Positions 9,089 through 37,780 of a stretch of 64,000 nt of DNA are shown here, one piece after another. The stretch comes from Clostridiales bacterium (lineage in GTDB: Bacteria; Bacillota; Dehalobacteriia; UBA4068), in contig JAXGOI010000001.1 in the NCBI GenBank assembly GCA_040767605.1, positions 1,124,607 to 1,188,606 of the forward strand, in the 5' to 3' direction. The notes under the pieces were generated by a model that saw nothing but the letters and a program-made list of their open reading frames with translations, did no database searches and was not told the DNA's origin. How positions within the stretch are numbered: position 1 is the stretch's first letter; each line of letters begins with the position of its first letter. The position numbers and the translations under genes are program-made.

Positions 9089-9279
9089 CCTATTGCAATC
9101 CGGCAAATTATTAATGGCAAGGGGCAGTATTAAAAAAGGCTAATATAGGTATATGCGCCTCAAGGCCTAAACCTGCTGTTTTGTTCCGGCAGGATAATAA
9201 AGGCAAGGATATTATTGGAGGAATCCGCAGTTTGTGCTATAATGGCATTAGCAGTTTTAGAATTTGCAGGAGGTTTTAA

Positions 9280-9999
9280 ATGATTAATCAAAGAGAACAA
9301 GTCCTACGCAGTCAATATGAGGATGCCCTTGCCCAAATTGACAGCGTAATGGCTTCTAAAATTACCCTCAATGATGAGGGGGCTATTGCCGGAATAAATA
9401 TTCTTGCCACTGCGGATAGGCTTTCTGAGGATATACTTGAGGATGCGCTTCATGTTTTTCAAACAAAATTCGGCCTGGAAGCGGAGCCTCAATATATTAG
9501 TATTACCCAGGATGATTTAAGCAAGCAATGGGATGCTTATATCGGCAGCAATAAAATTATCCCGGTGGAGCCTCCCCTCAATGGGGCGCCTGCTGCTAAA
9601 CCCTTATTTCCCAGGTTCCGTTTATTATGTGTAAATACCGTTATAACCGGTCTGGAAATGGAGGTTTCGGTTCAAATAGGCTTTATGGGAGAAGTTTTTG
9701 AGGGTACCGTAAGAGGGCCAAAGACTTCCTCCGGAAGGCTGTTTATGGTAGCCGCCGCCACTATGCAGGCTGTCAGCAAGTTTTTAGGGGATAAAGCGGC
9801 TTTAATTGCAGAAGAAGTAGTAAAAACTAAAATGGCCCAGAGAGATTCTATTTTGGCCAGTGTAACCATGATTACCGAAAACGAAGAGGAAACCCTTTTA
9901 GGCTCGGTATTCGTTAAAGAAGACGAAAACGAGGCCGTAAGCAGAGCAGCTTTAGACGCTATTAACCGCAGAATTATGATGCTTGCCGGTAAGGACTGA
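9280..9999 (+). CDS. hypothetical protein (unrecognised family)
   Basis: good SD (GCAGGAGG), 239 aa, acidic; no motif recognised by eye. Confidence 0.55.
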   Translation: MINQREQVLRSQYEDALAQIDSVMASKITLNDEGAIAGINILATADRLSEDILEDALHVFQTKFGLEAEPQYISITQDDLSKQWDAYIGSNKIIPVEPPLNGAPAAKPLFPRFRLLCVNTVITGLEMEVSVQIGFMGEVFEGTVRGPKTSSGRLFMVAAATMQAVSKFLGDKAALIAEEVVKTKMAQRDSILASVTMITENEEETLLGSVFVKEDENEAVSRAALDAINRRIMMLAGKD

Positions 10000-10118
10000 T
10001 TTGTTTTTCCGAAGCTTTGGGGCTGTTTATACCCTTGGGTATGGCAGCCCCTTCTTTATAGCTTTGGTTTCTTTTTTGTGTTTTTAAATGTTTTTGCAGG
10101 AATGTACGGGGTTTTTTC

Positions 10119-12770
10119 ATGGGAGGTGTTTTTTTGTTAGGGTTTTTAGCTAAAATATTAGATGATAATGCCCGGGATATAAAAAAATACGGTAAAGTTG
10201 TAGATATTATCAACGGGCTGGAGGGGGAGATTTCCTCCCTGAGTGATGAGGGCTTAAAAAATAAAACCGCGGAATTTAAAAACAGGCTTGATAAGGGGGA
10301 AACCTTGGAGGATTTGCTGCCGGAGGCCTTTGCCGTAGTGCGGGAGGCCGGCAAAAGAGTTTTAAATATGCGCCATTTTGATGTTCAGCTTATAGGGGGC
10401 ATGGCGCTTTTTCATGGCAGAATTGCGGAAATGAAAACCGGGGAAGGTAAAACCCTGGTGGCAACGGCCCCTGCTTACCTTCAGGCTTTAACCGGCAAGG
10501 GTGTGCATATTATAACCGTTAACGATTATTTGGCAAGCAGAGACAGCCAGTGGATGGGGCGGGTTTATAAATTCCTTGGCTTAAGTGTCGGCCTGATTAT
10601 ACACGGCCTGGGGCCGGAAGAAAAAAGGCAGGCCTATGCTGCGGATATTACCTATGGCACCAATAATGAATTTGGCTTTGATTATTTAAGGGATAATATG
10701 GCGGTACACCCCAGCCATATGGTACAGAGGCCTTTAAATTACTGTATTGTAGACGAAGTGGACAGTATTCTTATTGATGAAGCCCGTACCCCTTTAATTA
10801 TTTCCGGCCCTTCCGATAAGCCTACACAGCTTTATTATCAGATTGCCAAAATAATTCCCCGGCTTAAAGACGAAACGGATTATACTGTGGATGAAAAAGT
10901 CCGCAGCGCCGCTTTAACGGAAGAGGGAGTGGCAAGAGTAGAAAAGGCTTTGGGGCTGGAAAACCTCTATGATGATAAAAATACCGAAATTTGCCACCAT
11001 GTTAATCAGGCCTTAAAGGCAAGCGCCTTATTCCGCCGGGATAGGGATTATGTAATAAAAGACGGCCAGGTTATTATTGTAGATGAATTTACCGGGCGTT
11101 TAATGTTCGGCCGCCGCTATAGCGAGGGCCTTCATCAGGCCATTGAGGCTAAAGAAAATGTTAAAATAGAAAGAGAAAGCCAAACCCTGGCTACAATTAC
11201 ATTCCAAAATTATTTTAGAATGTATAATAAACTGGCAGGTATGACGGGTACTGCCAAAACGGAGGAAGAGGAATTCCGTAAAATTTACGGTTTGGATGTT
11301 GTAGAAATACCGACTAATCTCCCAATGATAAGAAAAGATTTATCCGACCGGATTTACAGAACGGAAAAGGGAAAATATAATGCCGTGGTAGAAGAAATTG
11401 CTGCCCATAATAAAGAGGGGCGGCCGGTTTTGGTGGGCACGGTTTCCATAGAAAAATCCGAGCTTATTTCCCTCCTTTTAAAAAATAAGGGTATAGAGCA
11501 TCAGGTTTTAAATGCAAAATTTCATGAAAAAGAGGCGGAAATTGTTTCTCAAGCCGGCAGGCTTAACGCCGTAACTATTGCTACAAATATGGCAGGCCGG
11601 GGTACGGATATTATTTTAGGAGGCAATTATCAGCTTTTAGCCGAAAGGGAAATTGCCGCCCTTGAGGCTCAGTTTGAAGATGAAGAGCAAACTTTAAGCG
11701 GCGCCGAGCGGCAGAGAATTATAGACAGGCATACCGAAGCCTCTAAAAATGAGCATGAAAGAGTTGTGGAATTGGGCGGGCTGCATATTATCGGCACAGA
11801 GCGCCATGAAAGCCGCCGTATAGATAATCAGCTTAGGGGCCGGGCCGCCCGCCAGGGAGACCCCGGTTCTACCTGCTTTTATCTTTCCGCCGAGGATGAT
11901 TTAGTCCGGATTTTTGCCGGGGATTCCATGGCGGGGCTTTTAGATCGCTTTGGGGTGGATGATTCCATGCCTATAGATTCGGGTTTGGTTTCTAAAACCA
12001 TAGAAAACGCCCAGAAAAAGGTAGAGGCCCGCCATTTTGATATCCGTAAAGCCGTCTTAGACTATGATGATGTTATGAATACCCAAAGGGAAATTATTTA
12101 TAAGGAGCGCCGCCAGGCCCTTTATGGGGAAAACCTTCGGGAAAGTGTTTTAGGCATGCTGGAGGATGTTATCGGTCGAATTATCGCTAATTTTACCTCC
12201 GCGGGGCAATATACCGAGGATTGGGATATTCCGGCCCTGCTGGAAGAATTATCTCCCTATTTTGAAAAGAATTGCCCGGACGCTGAAGAAATCCGCTCTC
12301 TGGCAGCGGATGAGGTTGCACCCCTAATTATAGAAAGGCTGAAGGAAAACTACGCCCAAAGAGGGGAAAAGCTGGGGGAAGAAACCCTGTCCGAGCTTGA
12401 GAGAATAGTTATTTTAAAAGTTGTGGACAGCAAATGGATGGATCATCTTGATGCTATGGATCAATTGCGCCAGGGGATTGGCCTTAGGGCCTATGGCCAA
12501 AGGGACCCTCTGGTGGAATATAAATACGAGGCCTTTAATATTTTCCAGCAAATGACGGAAGATATTCAAAATGAGGTTGTCCGCCTTTGCCTCAGGGCAA
12601 ATTTGGTAGAGGCCCCGCAGGAAAGACGGGAAATGACGGAGAACAAGTACCAGGAAGAGACTAAAAAACCCATACGCAAAAGCCCGGAAAAGCAAATAGG
12701 CAGAAATGACCCCTGCCCCTGCGGCAGCGGAAAGAAATATAAAAAATGCTGCGGCAGAGAAGAAGAGTAA
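10119..12770 (+). CDS. secA: preprotein translocase ATPase SecA
   Basis: DEAD motor motifs ([30 protein letters not shown]), C-terminal zinc finger [14 protein letters not shown]; true start may be TTG at 10134 (MLGFLAKIL..., SD GGGAGGTG). Confidence 0.95.
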
Positions 12771-12821
12771 TAAAAGCGGCTTAAAGGCTTTAAAACCAGG
12801 CCTGAAAAAGAGGAGGCAGCC

Positions 12822-13947
12822 ATGGTAGAAGATTTACGCCCTCAAATAAGCGAATACCGCCGGCGGGTTGAAAACCTTAGGAGGTCCCTTTGACATAGAG
12901 GGTAAAGAGGCTAGAATAGCCGAAGCCCAAAAAGAAACCCTGGCGGAAGATTTTTGGCAGGATGCGGAAAAAGCCCGCCGCAAAATGGCCTTTATTAATG
13001 AGCAAAAAGAGGCCGTCAGCCGATATATGGCGCTTAACCAAAACCTTGAAGAAATTGAAGCCCTTTGGGAGCTGGCCTTTGAGGCCGATGACGAGGCCCT
13101 TTGGGCTGAGGGCAAGGGGCTGCTCCGTAATTTTAACAAGCAGCTGGAAAAGGCCGAGCTTGATATTTTATTAAGCGGAGAATATGATAATCATAATGTG
13201 ATTTTATCCCTCCATGCCGGGGCAGGGGGGGTTGAGGCCCAGGATTGGGTAGAAATGCTTTTAAGAATGTATACTCGCTATTGTGATAAAAAAGGCTATA
13301 AAACAGAATTAATAGATTTTCTCCCCGGGGAAGAGGCCGGCATAAAAAGCGCCTCTTTAGCTGTGGAGGGCTTAAATGCCTACGGCTATTTTAAATCGGA
13401 AAAAGGAGTGCACCGCCTGGTGAGAATATCCCCCTTCGATTCTGCAGGCAGGCGCCATACCTCATTTGCCTCCGTTGAGGTTTTGCCTCAGGTGGAGGAA
13501 AATAATGAGGTTGAAATTGATGAGGATGACCTCCGTATAGATACCTTCCGTTCCGGCGGCAAGGGGGGGCAGCATGTAAATAAGACGGATTCCGCCGTGA
13601 GAATTACCCATATTCCCACCGGCATAGTTGTTCAATGCCAAAATGAGCGCTCTCAGCTCTCCAATAAAGATAAAGCCATGAAAATGCTTTACGCCAAGCT
13701 TTTGGATTTAAAAATTCAAAAGAAGGAGGCCGAGCTTAACAGCATTCGGGGGGATACTCAGGAAATAGCCTGGGGCAGTCAAATCCGCTCTTATGTTTTT
13801 CAGCCCTACCGCCTGGTTAAAGACCATAGAACAAATTTTGAAGCCGGTAATGTGGATGCCGTTATGGATGGGGAAATTGAGGATTTTATTTCGGCTTATT
13901 TGCAAATGCAATCTTTAGGCAGAAACTCTTTAGAAAAAACTTTTTAG
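12822..13947 (+). CDS. prfB: peptide chain release factor 2, expressed via programmed +1 frameshift (join 12822..12890, 12892..13947)
   Basis: ORF0 ATG 12822 ends at in-frame TGA 12891-12893 inside CTT TGA C, preceded by AGGAGG; +1 frame continues DIEGKEARIAEAQKE...; SPF and GGQ motifs downstream. Confidence 0.9.
12879..12894 (+). promoter_or_regulatory. prfB recoding site: internal SD-like AGGAGG followed by CUU UGA C shifty stop
   Basis: sequence AGGAGGTCCCTTTGAC read directly. Confidence 0.85.
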
Positions 13948-33449: not shown

Positions 33450-35354
33450 ATGGCAGGTCCCGGCGGGCCCCACAGAGGGGGTATAAAAACCCGGAAGCCT
33501 AAAAGCGCCGCCAAGGCATTTTTACGCCTTATAAAATATTTGCTGCCCTATAAATTTCAGCTTATAGCCGTGGTAATTTTAGTTTTTATCAGCGCAATTT
33601 CCGGCGTGGCAGGCTCCTATTTTATTAAGCCCCTTTTAAATGACCATATTGTGCCCTATATAGGCAAATCTCCTTCCCAGCTGGAAATGCAGCCCTTTAT
33701 AAGAATGATAGTTTTAATGGCTTCAATTTACCTTGCCGGGGTTTTGGCAACCTATGGTTACAGCCGCCTGATGGTAAATATAGCCAATAGAACTTTATTT
33801 GCCTTGCGCAATGATCTTTTCGGCAATATGCAGGATCTTTCTTTAAATTATTTTGATACCCATACCCATGGGGAATTAATGAGCCGTTATACCAATGATG
33901 TGGATACGGTAAGGGAGGCCTTAAGCCAGGGAATAACCCAGTTTATTTCCTCGGTTATTACAATTTTAGGGGCCTTTATAATGATGCTTGTTTTAAGCCC
34001 CATTCTTACCTCTCTTTTAATTGTAATGCTGATTTTAATGTTTATAATTGTGAAGGTTTTAGGGGGTAAAAGCGCCCATTATTACCGTAAGCAGCAAATG
34101 GCTATCGGAACCGTTAACGGCTATATAGAAGAAATGATTGAAGGGCAAAAGGTAATTAAGGTTTTCGGCAGGGAAGAAACTGTTAAAAAAGACTTTGGGG
34201 AATTAAATGAAACCCTGCGTAAGGCGGCAACCAGCGCCAACTCTTATGCCAATATTATTATGCCTATTATGGGTAATCTCTCTTATTTTAATTATGCTTT
34301 AACGGCGTCTGCCGGGGCTTTACTGGTTATAGCCGGCAGAATGGATATCGGCACCGTGGCTTCATTTTTACAGTACAGCCGTTCTTTTTCCATGCCCTTA
34401 GTTCAAATGTCTCAGCAATTTAATGCTGTTTTAGCTGCTTTGGCGGGGTCTGAGCGGATTTTTGAGATTATTGACCAAAAGCCGGAATATGATGAAGGCT
34501 ATATTAGCTTGGTAAATGCCGAAGAGGACCGGGATAAAACATTAAAAGAGTGTGATTGCCCCACGGGAATTTGGGCATGGAAGGAGCCTGTTGGGGGAGG
34601 CGGTTTTAAATATACCCGCCTTTTGGGGGAGGTTCGTTTTCATAATGTGGGTTTTGGCTACGAGAAAGATAAAAAGGTGCTTAAAAATGTTTCTCTCTAT
34701 GCCAAGCCCGGGCAGAAAATTGCCTTTGTAGGCTCAACAGGGGCCGGTAAAACTACAATAACCAATTTAATAAACCGCTTTTATGAGGTTGAAGAAGGGC
34801 AGATAACCTATGACGGCATAGATATACGCAAAATAAAAAAAGACGATTTGCGCCGTTCTTTAGGTATGGTTTTACAGGATACCCATCTTTTTTCCGGCAG
34901 CGTAAAAGAAAATATCCGTTACGGCAAGCTGGATGCCACGGAGGAGGAAATTATTTCCGCCGCTAAAATGGCTAATGCCCATGGTTTTATCGGCCATTTG
35001 CCCAAGGGTTATGATTCCCTCCTTAAAGGAGACGGCTCTAATTTAAGCCAAGGGCAAAGGCAGCTTTTAAATATTGCCAGAGCCGCTGTGGCAAACCCCC
35101 CGGTATTAATTTTGGATGAGGCCACAAGCTCCATTGATACCCGTACGGAGGCTCTGATAGATAAAGGGATGGATACCCTTATGGCCGGGCGCACCGTTTT
35201 TGTAATTGCCCACCGCCTTTCCACAGTCAGGAATGCGAATGCCATTATTGTACTGGAAAACGGTGAGATAATTGAAAGAGGAGACCATGACCAGCTTTTA
35301 GCCCAAAAGGGTAAATATTATCAGTTTTATACCGGCCAGTCTGAGCTGGCATAA
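33450..35354 (+). CDS. ABC transporter permease/ATP-binding protein (partner half-transporter)
   Basis: overlapping stop/start TAAATG; NBD motifs GSTGAGKTT, LSQGQRQLLNIARA, ILDEATSSID. Confidence 0.85.
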   Translation: MAGPGGPHRGGIKTRKPKSAAKAFLRLIKYLLPYKFQLIAVVILVFISAISGVAGSYFIKPLLNDHIVPYIGKSPSQLEMQPFIRMIVLMASIYLAGVLATYGYSRLMVNIANRTLFALRNDLFGNMQDLSLNYFDTHTHGELMSRYTNDVDTVREALSQGITQFISSVITILGAFIMMLVLSPILTSLLIVMLILMFIIVKVLGGKSAHYYRKQQMAIGTVNGYIEEMIEGQKVIKVFGREETVKKDFGELNETLRKAATSANSYANIIMPIMGNLSYFNYALTASAGALLVIAGRMDIGTVASFLQYSRSFSMPLVQMSQQFNAVLAALAGSERIFEIIDQKPEYDEGYISLVNAEEDRDKTLKECDCPTGIWAWKEPVGGGGFKYTRLLGEVRFHNVGFGYEKDKKVLKNVSLYAKPGQKIAFVGSTGAGKTTITNLINRFYEVEEGQITYDGIDIRKIKKDDLRRSLGMVLQDTHLFSGSVKENIRYGKLDATEEEIISAAKMANAHGFIGHLPKGYDSLLKGDGSNLSQGQRQLLNIARAAVANPPVLILDEATSSIDTRTEALIDKGMDTLMAGRTVFVIAHRLSTVRNANAIIVLENGEIIERGDHDQLLAQKGKYYQFYTGQSELA

Positions 35355-35427
35355 AAAAAGCGCCTAAAGGCGTCCTACCATAGGGATTGGTAATCCCTGA
35401 AAAACTCGGCATAGTCGTGTGATACGG

Positions 35428-36117
35428 CTATGCCGTTTTTTCGTGCGTTTTCGGAATCTCGACTGCGCCGATGCAGTTGTAGATAATCTGGATGCGCTGG
35501 GTACGGACGCCATCGACCTTTTCTGCCTTGTAGACGATGATTTTCTCAATGAACTCGCGGATTATCTCTCCGTCCAATTCCGTGAAATCCGTGTAGCCCT
35601 TGACCCGTGTGAGAAAGCGGTCGATGTTGAGCGCCCTCTCTTTTGTGGCGTCGAGCATGGCTTTGAGCACCGTGGCTCTCTCCACGAGGGCTTTCTGCTC
35701 AGCCTCGTAATCGGCGGACATCCGGCTGAAACGCTCCTCCGAGATTTTCTCCATCACATGGTCTTCGTAAAGACGCTGCATGATTTTGTCCAGCGCCGCT
35801 ATCCGCACCTGCCCTTGCTCGTATTCCTTCTGCGCAAGCCGCATATCCGCAGCGTGTTTTTTCTCGGAATCCCTTTGCACCAGCTCGACAAACTCGCGCT
35901 CGTGTTCGCTGGCAAAGGCAATGACCCGCTTCAAATCGTCCATCACCAGCTCCTCGATGACCACATTGCGTATCTGGTGGGAACTGCACAAGCCCTTCTT
36001 TTTACGGTATGTAGCGCAGACGAAATATTCCTTGTCGTGCGTCCAGCCGTTGGCTCTGACCTGATACAGCTTCGCGCCGCAGTCGGCGCAGTACATCATG
36101 CCGGAAAGAGCGCCCAT
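35428..36117 (-). pseudogene. large serine recombinase (TnpX/TndX-like), C-terminal fragment only: zinc beta-ribbon plus coiled-coil; catalytic resolvase domain missing
   Basis: LSGMMYCADCGAKLY...FVCATYRKKKGLCSSHQIRN zinc ribbon; same frame upstream hits a stop at 36196-36198 and no S/R catalytic motifs are encoded upstream. Confidence 0.75.
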
Positions 36118-36272
36118 TTGGCTAATGCCGCCGTGTAAGCTGCTGCGGCATTCTGTGGGAGTGCACAGAGGTGGTGTGCCGGGTCGTTTGCCATGTCACG
36201 CAGTTCCGGCGCAACAGTGGCGTTCTTCATGCTTTTCCAGAAAGCGTCGGTGATTTTTTCGTAAGTTAACAT
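36096..36272 (-). CDS. small ORF (58 aa) overlapping the recombinase fragment start
   Basis: AGGAGG SD then ATG at 36272; MLTYEKITDAFWKSMKN...; could be a frameshifted relic. Confidence 0.3.
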   Translation of the reverse strand: MLTYEKITDAFWKSMKNATVAPELRDMANDPAHHLCALPQNAAAAYTAALAKWALFPA

Positions 36273-36289
36273 TGTAATATCCTCCTAAT

Positions 36290-36577
36290 TTAATAACAGT
36301 TTTTGCAGGTGTAGACGGCCAGCGTGTGCCGGTCGAGGTGCGGCGCTATGGAGTCCATGACCGCACCGCAGTAGGGACAATGGATGGTGTACCTGAGATA
36401 ATCCGTCATGCTGTGGGGCTGCCTTGCATGGAGCCGGTATCGATTCGGGATGAATTCTTCAAGGTATAGGTCGTGATGGTCGTTGACGCAGCCATAATCG
36501 GTGTTGCCGAACATGGGCGTTTTGTCGGTGCCGTCCATAGTGGTGTCCACAAGCGGGTGGTACTTGATGTCCGTCAT
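36290..36577 (-). CDS. small zinc-ribbon protein (95 aa), island cargo
   Basis: AGGAGG SD; C-terminal CPYC...CKNC; start overlaps upstream stop (ATGA). Confidence 0.5.
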   Translation of the reverse strand: MTDIKYHPLVDTTMDGTDKTPMFGNTDYGCVNDHHDLYLEEFIPNRYRLHARQPHSMTDYLRYTIHCPYCGAVMDSIAPHLDRHTLAVYTCKNCY

Positions 36578-36861
36578 GCGCTTTTCCTCCTGAATTTGTC
36601 ATAACGGCGTTTAAGCAGAATGGCGCGAATACGGCTGATGTAGCCTCTGTCGATGCAGTCCTGCAGCATCTGGTCGATTGTGCCGTACCAGCAGCTCCCG
36701 CCGCGACAGCGCATATTGAGATATTTGTCCTTGCTCATGTCTCTGGGAACGAGCAGGACGGCGGCGTCCTCGTGCGACTGCGGCACGACAGCCAGCAGGT
36801 GGAAAGTGGCAAGGTTCATATCCATGCGCAGGTAGCGCTCCAGTCGTCTGTTCAGCTTCAT
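36574..36861 (-). CDS. small basic hypothetical protein (95 aa), island cargo
   Basis: start 4 nt after upstream stop; Cys/Arg-rich (MRCRGGSCWYGTIDQMLQDCIDRGY). Confidence 0.5.
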   Translation of the reverse strand: MKLNRRLERYLRMDMNLATFHLLAVVPQSHEDAAVLLVPRDMSKDKYLNMRCRGGSCWYGTIDQMLQDCIDRGYISRIRAILLKRRYDKFRRKSA

Positions 36862-36865
36862 GCGC

Positions 36866-37141
36866 TCACGCCTCCACGTCGGCAAGGGGATTGCCGGAGA
36901 GGTCAAAGAAGCGTCCCTTGCAGTACGCCATCGCCTCGTCATAGCTGCCGAACACAAGGCAGGAGCAGCCGTATTCGACCTTCCATATCGGGAAGTCCGG
37001 GTCGTTGTTCTGGGAGACAGCCACAGGCTGGCCCTTGCGATTCTGTAGCAGGAAGTGGCAGTCGTAGTGGCCGCGAGAGAACATTCCTCTGTCGTTGGCT
37101 GTGAAGCGCGGCTTCGCGCCGTAGGTTATCTTGCGTTTCAT
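36866..37141 (-). CDS. small hypothetical protein (91 aa), first gene of island operon
   Basis: SD GGAGGAAAACAAC then ATG at 37141; MKRKITYGAKPRF... Confidence 0.5.
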   Translation of the reverse strand: MKRKITYGAKPRFTANDRGMFSRGHYDCHFLLQNRKGQPVAVSQNNDPDFPIWKVEYGCSCLVFGSYDEAMAYCKGRFFDLSGNPLADVEA

Positions 37142-37168
37142 GTTGTTTTCCTCCATTTGTTTGATTTT

Positions 37169-37180
37169 GGGTATATACCC
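37169..37180. promoter_or_regulatory. perfect 12 bp palindrome GGGTATATACCC just upstream of island operon SD
   Basis: read directly; overlaps probable -10 region; candidate operator. Confidence 0.35.
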
Positions 37181-37780
37181 CGTTTGAATTCGCGTTTTTG
37201 TGTACGAAGCCCCACGCCGCTGTCCGAGATGAATAGCTGTGGAGATTCGACCTCCCCCTGATAAGTACCCCAAAAATTGGACAGCCATAGTTGTCCTTAT
37301 CCGCGTTTGCAAGAGCAACGAAGCAAAGGCTGTTTCATTCTCTAAGGCGCGTAACGAGCAGAATGGCACGCTCAGTTGCGGAAGCAAGAATCTTCACGAT
37401 ATTCTTGTTTTGTTCATCCCGGACTACCAGCCGAAAAAGCGGTACAAGGTTACGGGCGAATTTGATGCCGAAAACCGTGTGATGTACTACGATATGACCA
37501 CAGCGGAGGTGTCGGAGTTCCGCGCTGTCAAGGAGTAAAGTGCCGCCGTATCGGTGGTGCTATGCCGTCGGTGCGGCTTCCTTAGGGATTTTTCTGCACG
37601 CAAAAAAGCAGCCATGCAGGAGCGTAAATGCTCTTACATGGCTACTTTCTTGTTTGCGCCGCTTGAAGCTGTCACTCAAGTTTTTTTGTTAAATCCCTGT
37701 GTGAACGCTCCAAAAAGGCGCTTTTTTATTGGCGTAAATTTGGCTTTTACCCCTTAAAGTGTTACCGGCGAAGGGAATTC

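Follow-up and report, generated by a model that had tools for sequence, protein, structure and literature searches.

We consider, with a probability of roughly 60%, that the small open reading frames found between positions 37141 and 36096 of the window (the 64,000-nucleotide stretch of Clostridiales bacterium DNA analyzed here) belong to a dead remnant of a phage satellite family, apparently undescribed, which is minimal, of the cos type, and encodes its own capsid protein. The island which carries them (about 35366–37715) is a deletion remnant of an approximately 7.3-kb integrative element, an intact copy of which, L001, is 94–95% identical to the copy in the window. The latter is dead because it lacks replication genes, a capsid gene and an active recombinase. 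It keeps only a conserved noncoding site of approximately 92 nucleotides, ORFs 1–3, 52 capsid codons and the C-terminus of the recombinase.

The four ORFs follow one another head-to-tail on the minus strand, each behind a Shine-Dalgarno sequence (GGAGG or AGGAGG). ORF1 (37141–36866; 91 aa) is separated by four nucleotides (GCGC) from ORF2 (36861–36574; 95 aa), which in turn overlaps ORF3 (36577–36290; 95 aa) at an ATGA junction. After a gap of 17 nucleotides follows ORF4 (36272–36096; 58 aa), which shares a 22-nucleotide overlap with the ATG of a recombinase fragment (36117–35428, minus strand). The ORFs are translationally coupled. A preliminary description of this DNA had reported the head-to-tail arrangement with its strong Shine-Dalgarno sequences, 4-nucleotide gap and ATGA overlap, the location on a mobile-element island beside a serine-recombinase fragment, and the lack of any recognizable protein family. 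Each of these points was borne out, the last by scans of ORFs 1–4 against Pfam, NCBIfam, PHROGs and PADLOC in which nothing rose above noise; PDB profile searches with ORFs 1–3 likewise returned no match. The same description spoke of four proteins, and this requires correction: ORF4 is not a gene but a pseudogene chimera produced by a deletion, composed of capsid codons 1–52 and six out-of-frame codons.

No sigma-70-like promoter was discovered upstream of ORF1 on the minus strand in a promoter scan of the window, and ORFs 1–3 are most likely recent passengers here, intact so far, which possess no dedicated promoter. Their dN/dS ratios are low. We rejected this as a gauge of present function, upon which it is silent because the capsid and recombinase stubs give equal values.

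The history of the deletion can be read from the comparison with L001. In blastn alignments window positions 37258–36117 correspond to L001 9319–10461, and 36122–35351 to L001 12530–13303, which places the deletion junction at 36117–36122 (AAA, or an imperfect 6-nucleotide microhomology). Relative to the intact element 2,068 bp were lost, comprising capsid codons 53–304, tnpW and the first 325 or so codons of the recombinase gene. In an alignment the N-terminus of ORF4 matches the first 52 residues of the L001 capsid protein (304 aa); these lie mostly ahead of the PF05065 domain (residues 37–301), so that a full domain is not present. Its tail (WALFPA) is an out-of-frame reading of L001 12416–12556. 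The recombinase fragment codes for the last 229 aa of a large serine recombinase resembling TnpX and is, at the nucleotide level, 95% identical to the 3' portion of the L001 gene for the 556-aa recombinase. While it retains the zinc ribbon [PF13408, 3.5e-15], the coiled coil and DUF4368 [PF14287, 9.8e-24], the resolvase and recombinase catalytic domains disappeared with the deleted N-terminal part. At the other side homology ends at 37258–37259, coincident with the 5' edge of the 92-nucleotide site, beyond which the primase-helicase and regulator arm of the intact element is absent.

The island is also distinguished by its G+C content (0.52–0.58 versus about 0.40–0.47 in the flanks) and is bracketed by a perfect 12-nucleotide inverted repeat. 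The left arm (AGGCGCTTTTTT; 37716–37727) probably forms the left-hand boundary of the island, which spans 2.35 kb. Sequence homologous to L001 starts just inside the right arm (35354–35365), which probably represents one half of a bidirectional terminator of the host (attB) that the insertion divided in two. Within the island a small 5'-truncated ORF on the plus strand (37290–37538), unrelated to L001, has as its homolog a small ORF close to the left end of Streptococcus prophages of the φm46.1/φ1207.3 type (33–35% identity; tblastn, 2e-8 to 1e-6). A plasmid collection yielded matches to the recombinase part only.

Intact elements measure about 7–8 kb, and their architecture recurs in independent contigs: an HTH regulator, a D5/NrS-1-type primase-helicase, the 92-nucleotide site, ORF1, in some cases ORF2, ORF3, the capsid gene, TnpW and the TnpX-like recombinase. 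Cultured carriers of intact copies include Blautia sp. Marseille-P3087 and Neglectibacter timonensis SN17. Among 32 related loci with sufficient flanking sequence ORF1 is followed by ORF3 in 31, and the capsid gene comes next in 30; ORF2 was found in six, always between the other two. The preliminary description had taken a lack of conservation in related elements as grounds for abandoning its reading, and had advised a search for co-occurrence of the genes with serine recombinases. Three of the ORFs are in fact conserved in related elements, but a serine recombinase with TnpW is present at only 12 of the 23 loci counted for this pair, and ORF1 and ORF3 track the capsid gene instead. In the Blautia clade a Tn916-type Xis and tyrosine integrase stand in place of the serine recombinase. 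ORF1 and ORF3 are thus near-obligate neighbors of the capsid gene in at least 30 diverged elements, in which the integration module is swapped between clades. This compact gene order is found at ORF1 identities of 37–96%, in many families of Clostridia and beyond.

Two properties of the intact relatives are those of satellites. They possess their own replication initiator, a 781-aa primase-helicase with NrS-1 HBD, D5_N and Pox_D5 domains [phrog_1829, 1e-168], which is absent from the window copy. They also have their own regulators and integrase, either the HTH protein and 556-aa serine recombinase or the Tn916-type Xis and Int. The capsid gene is the sole morphogenesis gene of the 7.3-kb L001 element, in which all other genes are accounted for. 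Neither ORF1 nor ORF3 was found in 50,697 phage records, with the exception of one 4.7-kb “Bacteriophage sp.” scaffold from human faecal samples; this scaffold is a member of the element family and provides the one hint of helper-dependent packaging and transfer.

The 304-aa capsid protein of L001 is a member of the HK97 family [PF05065, 2e-64], with 37–39% identity across the mature region to capsid proteins of Ca. Heliusvirales phages. Its closest solved relative is the capsid protein of RcGTA [6tb9, 7e-29]. Based upon its alignment to residues 93–396 only of the 404-aa Heliusvirales protein, the N-terminal 92 aa of which form a charged helical segment, the element protein lacks the N-terminal delta (scaffolding) domain. 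It therefore shares the PF05065 fold with the delta-domain capsids of Heliusvirales and RcGTA but dispenses with this segment of approximately 90 aa; of its gene the window, as stated, holds 52 codons.

A second connection to these phages is the conserved noncoding site (37165–37259, minus strand), which lies directly upstream of ORF1. It is 75–82% identical to the intergenic region between the HNH and terS genes of Ca. Heliusvirales phages and of Streptococcus phage Javan630; the phage gene downstream of the site was identified as terS [phrog_83, 3e-36]. With nhmmer it was located in nearly all related elements, at three positions and in both orientations. From its place in the phages we suggest that it is a putative cos-like packaging site. 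In some loci there is a second, partial and inverted copy, a point which speaks against this suggestion. A structured RNA, leader or tRNA-like sequence was considered and rejected: there were no Rfam or ARAGORN matches, RNAalifold predicted 0 pairs among 25 sequences, and the site can face either way with respect to the genes.

The small proteins themselves give fewer clues. ORF1 is predicted to adopt an alpha/beta fold (helix, four strands, helix). The preliminary description attributed paired CxxC motifs to two of the ORFs, which holds for ORF3 only. The cysteines of ORF1 are scattered, only C28 and C74 being invariant, and it has no CxxC; it is not a zinc protein. ORF2 contains CRGGSC (Cx4C), the second cysteine of which is unconserved and is tyrosine in homologs, and thus no zinc ribbon either; its homologs form five clusters. 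ORF3, by comparison, ends in a four-cysteine zinc ribbon (CPYC...CKNC), with C67, C70, C91 and C94 invariant among eight homologs. The remainder of ORF3 is a beta-rich N-terminal part, and its AF2 model displays C-terminal beta hairpins. In relatives it is frequently duplicated, the paralog being 102–124 aa in length. We ruled out that ORF3 is an HNH endonuclease, since just 20 residues separate its CxxC pairs and the histidines between them are unconserved. An exhaustive profile search with ORF1 revealed no informative domain fusion; the long matches were WD40 or Ig repeat proteins, or read-through and chimeric ORFs. The structure search on predicted models which had been advised earlier was carried out for ORF1 and ORF3, and a significant neighbor was found for neither. 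Because of this, it is synteny which suggests that these two proteins may function in capsid assembly.

Taken as a minimal satellite with its own capsid gene, the element would replicate by means of its primase-helicase while a cos phage of the Heliusvirales type grows in the same cell. The HNH/TerS/TerL terminase of this helper would cut and package the element at the common cos-like site, and the DNA would enter small heads for which the element itself supplies the delta-less capsid protein. The alpha/beta protein ORF1 and the beta-rich, zinc-ribbon protein ORF3 would be satellite-specific factors of the capsid module, most likely assembly or size-determining partners which replace the delta domain or form a bridge to the portal and protease of the helper. 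In its fullest form, this proposal is that ORF1, ORF3, the delta-less capsid and the 92-nucleotide site define a new family of minimal, “capsid-only” 7–8 kb satellites of Ca. Heliusvirales, a phage order very widespread in the gut, in which ORF1 and ORF3 represent new folds that serve as scaffolds and size-setters, or as portal and protease couplers, in small heads; we offer this tentatively, and the odds are against so specific a version. Both proteins are predicted to be globular and beta-rich; known scaffolding proteins and delta domains are helical, which counts against an assembly role.

It is also conceivable, though unlikely, that the element mainly blocks phage. The delta-less capsid protein would then act as a dominant-negative “poison,” ORF1 and ORF3 would inhibit head or terminase proteins of the helper, and the trio in the window might have been kept as a phage-resistance module. 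This reading is modeled upon SaPI Ppi and PtiA or the factors of PLE.

Less probable still is action at the level of DNA. ORF1, with a possible WGR-like fold, and the zinc ribbon of ORF3 might bind nucleic acid at the cos-like site or the origin, and so substitute for TerS or HNH specificity or regulate replication or late genes. The matches concerned are, however, insignificant and generic for zinc ribbons. Furthermore, the position of the cos-like site with respect to ORF1 and ORF3 differs from clade to clade, while the capsid gene remains their neighbor; and as the site of the helper is already in the element, no new specificity factor is needed.

We regard it as very improbable that no satellite is involved, and that one is dealing with recurrent prophage decay or with a small integrative element which forms a capsid-like compartment or a GTA-like particle and has no helper. 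RcGTA does provide the nearest solved capsid relative, and the helper is a putative one. Nevertheless, random decay would not yield the same compact gene order across so wide a range of ORF1 identities, the elements have no terminase or portal gene for autonomous packaging, and the site is common to the element and the HNH|terS junctions of phages.

Equally hard to credit is the original proposal of an autonomous four-gene cargo module (toxin-antitoxin, anti-defense or regulator) on a recombinase-bearing island. In its favor were the small size and tight coupling of genes situated on a mobile element, and a weak PHROG match (E 0.21) between ORF1 and an antitoxin family. It is largely refuted in that ORF4 is a stub of the capsid gene, ORF1 and ORF3 belong to the core and are tied to the capsid gene and not to the recombinase, the unit as a whole is a deletion remnant, and neither a recognizable toxin-antitoxin or anti-phage defense domain (PADLOC, Pfam, NCBIfam) nor a cargo-like distribution was found. 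In annotation ORF4 and the recombinase ORF should be treated as pseudogene pieces, and no toxin-antitoxin or defense function should be inferred here.

If the elements are indeed satellites, their nearest counterparts are the cf-PICIs (EcCIEDL933), which are likewise small and integrative and carry a replication module and an HK97-type capsid protein of their own. Cf-PICIs exploit HNH-dependent cos phages, and their capsids have clearly diverged from phage homologs; they are about 15 kb in size and encode capsid, protease, portal, head-tail connectors, HNH, TerS and TerL (10.1101/2022.09.08.507074). Unlike these, the element has, within approximately 7.3 kb, a delta-less capsid protein only, accompanied by two or three small proteins; the full head and packaging set of a cf-PICI is absent from L001. 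Cos-type SaPIs (SaPIbov5) and satellite P4 carry the cos of the helper and depend on its terminase (10.1101/2022.09.08.507074), and the element similarly has a copy of the phage HNH|terS intergenic sequence, with putative cos activity. Whereas those satellites remodel the helper capsid with scaffold-like proteins (Ccm, Sid), the present elements come with a capsid protein of their own. ORF1 and ORF3 displayed no similarity in sequence or fold to Sid, Psu, CpmA/B or Ccm with the tools used. The integration module is the same as in mobilizable transposons of the Tn4451/Tn4453 type (TnpX and TnpW): a gene of the TnpW family comes ahead of one for a large serine recombinase that bears DUF4368 at its C-terminus. 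The element differs in having no Mob/oriT, TnpV/Y or resistance genes. This module does not define the family, because sister clades swap in the Tn916-type Xis/Int.

We encountered no account of such an element type in the literature searched (TnpW with capsid, Lachnospiraceae satellites, Heliusvirales satellites, and cos ends of the φ1207.3 type). Should the satellite reading be correct, these elements would bridge the gap between satellites which steal every head protein (SaPI, P4, PLE) and those which encode a whole head (cf-PICI), since the satellite's own contribution would be limited to a capsid protein without a scaffold and two tiny partners. They would also be the first satellite system tied to Ca. 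Heliusvirales, a phage lineage which is widespread in the human gut (PMC11283538).

The four small ORFs lie head-to-tail on the minus strand with short gaps or overlaps, as the preliminary description had it, and each follows a strong GGAGG-type ribosome-binding site. ORF1 (37141–36866, 91 aa) and ORF2 (36861–36574, 95 aa) are separated by 4 nt, ORF2 and ORF3 (36577–36290, 95 aa) share an ATGA overlap, and 17 nt separate ORF3 from ORF4 (36272–36096, 58 aa). ORF4 in turn runs 22 nt into a 229-aa reading frame (36117–35428, minus strand) that comprises what remains of a large serine recombinase, its C-terminal portion with zinc ribbon, coiled coil and DUF4368. The island on which they reside has a G+C content of 0.52–0.58 versus approximately 0.40–0.47 in the flanking ABC-transporter genes. 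Scans of Pfam, NCBIfam, PHROGs and PADLOC gave no matches for any of the four ORFs; neither a tRNA gene nor an Rfam family was found at the locus, nor was a sigma-70-like promoter found ahead of ORF1 in the window. The CxxC...CxxC arrangement ascribed earlier to two of the proteins occurs in ORF3 only, and the count of four proteins must be reduced, ORF4 being capsid codons 1–52 followed by six out-of-frame codons of the recombinase gene (“WALFPA”).

The origin of this stub is evident from MAG contig L001 [GCA_964597515.1], in which ORF3 is 98% identical and the element is intact. There a divergent HTH_26 regulator is followed by genes for a 781-aa primase-helicase (NrS-1 HBD, D5_N, Pox_D5), proteins of 91, 95 and 95 aa, a 304-aa Phage_capsid protein [PF05065, 2e-64], TnpW and a 556-aa large serine recombinase. 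Type I-C cas genes (cas3, cas7, cas8c-like, cas5d) lie directly to its left (L001 94–5921). Blastn aligned the window with this contig in two collinear blocks, 37258–36117 with 9319–10461 (94.4% identity) and 36122–35351 with 12530–13303 (95.5%), and therefore 2,068 bp have been lost from the window copy. The deletion, with AAA/an imperfect 6-nt microhomology at its junction, took capsid codons 53–304, tnpW and approximately 325 N-terminal recombinase codons. Since homology to L001 ends at 37258, the primase gene and regulator are missing too. The window copy is incapable of replication, recombination or capsid production. The same remnant is present in three Logan assemblies. For ORFs 1–3, dN/dS relative to L001 is 0.05–0.14, and the remains of the capsid and recombinase genes score just as low; decay is thus recent, and that ORFs 1–3 are intact is no evidence of retained function.

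The whole 2.35-kb island is flanked by a perfect 12-nt inverted repeat (35354–35365 and 37716–37727; AAAAAAGCGCCT/AGGCGCTTTTTT) which probably marks the insertion site. Its arms resemble what the insertion would leave of a bidirectional terminator lying between a pair of convergent host genes, one half on each side, and such a terminator could have served the TnpX-like recombinase as attB. Within the right end of the element, and conserved in L001, is a strong hairpin with a 13-bp stem followed by a T run (35407–35435), which overlaps the stop of the recombinase fragment. The 0.46 kb at 37259–37715 holds a truncated plus-strand small ORF (37290–37538) with relatives, 33–35% identical, in Streptococcus phages: ORF2 of phi-m46.1, and counterparts in phi1207.3, phiNJ3 and others like them. 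The phi-m46.1 record, the single one inspected, places the homolog near the prophage left end beside mef(A).

Among 5.8 billion proteins, homologs of ORF1, ORF2 and ORF3 form only 12, 5 and 7 clusters, respectively. An ORF1 profile run against one genome per GTDB species recovered 28 loci, mostly in Clostridia MAGs (Lachnospiraceae, Acutalibacteraceae, Oscillospiraceae, Ruminococcaceae), with two isolates, Blautia sp. Marseille-P3087 and Neglectibacter timonensis SN17, and outliers in Anaerolineaceae and Pyramidobacter MAGs. A further 5 loci came from IMG/VR. Reference proteins were mapped onto the loci by tblastn. Where at least 1.9 kb lay downstream of ORF1, ORF3 was present in 31/32 loci, the capsid gene in 30, a second ORF3 paralog (102–124 aa) in 15 and ORF2 in 6. 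TnpW and the serine recombinase occurred in 12 of the 23 loci with enough flank, and the Blautia clade has instead two Tn916-Xis-like genes and a Tn916-type tyrosine integrase. The constant core therefore consists of the replication gene, ORF1, ORF3 and the capsid gene, the integration module being exchangeable. ORF1 and ORF3 were absent from 50,697 phage records with the sole exception of MT838964.1 (1–4712), a 4.7-kb sequence from human faecal samples deposited as “UNVERIFIED: Bacteriophage sp.” It carries primase, ORF1, ORF3, ORF3 paralog, capsid and Xis-like genes and is a member of the present family, no phage. A lone ORF1 homolog (69% identity) in Candidatus Cryosericum and related MAGs (L016/L026, ~9247–10288) keeps the cos-like element described below and a primase fragment in a conserved housekeeping neighborhood, between smpB...rdgB and tig-clpP-clpX; it is a further decayed remnant, in a distant phylum.

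Two features independently connect this element with Ca. Heliusvirales and with related temperate phages of Streptococcus and Erysipelothrix: its capsid protein and a non-coding site. The best phage relatives of the capsid protein are those of Heliusvirales (37–39% identity over nearly the full length), and among solved structures it comes nearest to the RcGTA capsid protein. The 304-aa protein (L001 10306–11220) aligns with residues 93–396 of its 404-aa counterpart in Ruminococcus phage NatCom_28274 (L057 6725–7939). The N-terminal 92 residues of that phage protein make up a helical, charged segment of the kind typically seen as HK97 delta/scaffolding domain. As the alignment begins beyond this segment, the element protein is delta-less.

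The second feature is a non-coding stretch of ~92 nt upstream of ORF1 (37165–37259, minus strand; further copies at L001 9316–9408, L009 4000–4093, L010 3997–4087 and L011 4021–4112), 75–82% identical to intergenic sequence of Ca. Heliusvirales, Streptococcus and Erysipelothrix phages. In three phages examined it falls between the HNH-endonuclease gene and a small-terminase match (phrog_83, 3e-36 to 3e-30), which is the classical cos position in HNH-dependent cos phages. Nhmmer found it in nearly all related loci, in one of three places: ahead of ORF1, in the interval from ORF3 to the capsid gene, or beyond the capsid gene in inverted orientation. RNAalifold gave no consensus pairing across 25 copies. 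Because it shows neither orientation dependence nor RNA structure, a DNA site is favored over a leader or promoter, and from its position this site is probably cos or a sequence recognized by terminase. The remnant's left breakpoint, from deletion or rearrangement (37258/37259), falls exactly on its 5′ edge; speculatively, this would fit a break at cos, arising through terminase cleavage in situ or as the end of a packaged linear molecule, that was then joined illegitimately. Several elements carry inverted partial second copies of about 60–70 nt just downstream of the capsid gene (L029 ~12037–12093, L037 ~11894–11965, L040 ~11901–11972, L043 ~9254–9314, L047 ~12145–12209), so that the ORF1-ORF3-capsid module is bracketed by inverted copies. 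These may be scars of recombination or mark a cassette that can be inverted or exchanged.

ORF1 is strongly conserved (mean column identity 65%) and is modeled as a helix, four strands and a helix (pLDDT 81); the ORF3 model (pLDDT 85) has a beta-rich domain and, C-terminal to it, a four-Cys ribbon. BFVD yielded no match for ORF3, and PDB-sequence profile searches with ORFs 1–3 were negative. An exhaustive ORF1 profile search gave 199 representatives; those belonging to the family are mostly 80–100 aa long, and no informative domain fusion appeared. Since these searches were uninformative, the function of ORF1 and ORF3 rests on context: their genes lie immediately upstream of the capsid gene, where phages put scaffold or protease genes, and the accompanying capsid protein is one without a built-in scaffold.

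From the anatomy, deletions and synteny of the element, the site it shares with phages and the delta-less state of its capsid protein, we infer that the family is a satellite of the cos type that depends on Heliusvirales-like phages as helpers. The helper HNH, TerS and TerL would cut and package a satellite genome of ~7.5 kb into small heads assembled from the capsid protein that the satellite itself encodes, and ORF1 and ORF3 would act as assembly, size-setting or hijacking factors. Alternatively, the element might serve in interference or defence, the capsid protein being a poison subunit and the small proteins inhibitors; or the small proteins might bind DNA at cos or the origin. Further rivals are the toxin-antitoxin or anti-defence cargo first proposed and, lastly, an element of non-satellite origin.

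As a satellite, the family would work most nearly in the mode of the cf-PICIs and cos-SaPIs/P4. It departs from the definition of a cf-PICI in having no protease, portal, connector, HNH or terminase genes (for the definition, and a discussion of cos in HNH-dependent cos phages, see 10.1101/2022.09.08.507074). One clade resembles Tn4451 in its integration module (TnpX-type recombinase and TnpW), another Tn916. A literature search of limited reach found no account of such capsid-only elements. The family is thus apparently an undescribed form of phage satellite of which the window locus is a degraded example, ordinary in itself, that points to a testable satellite-helper system in gut Clostridia.
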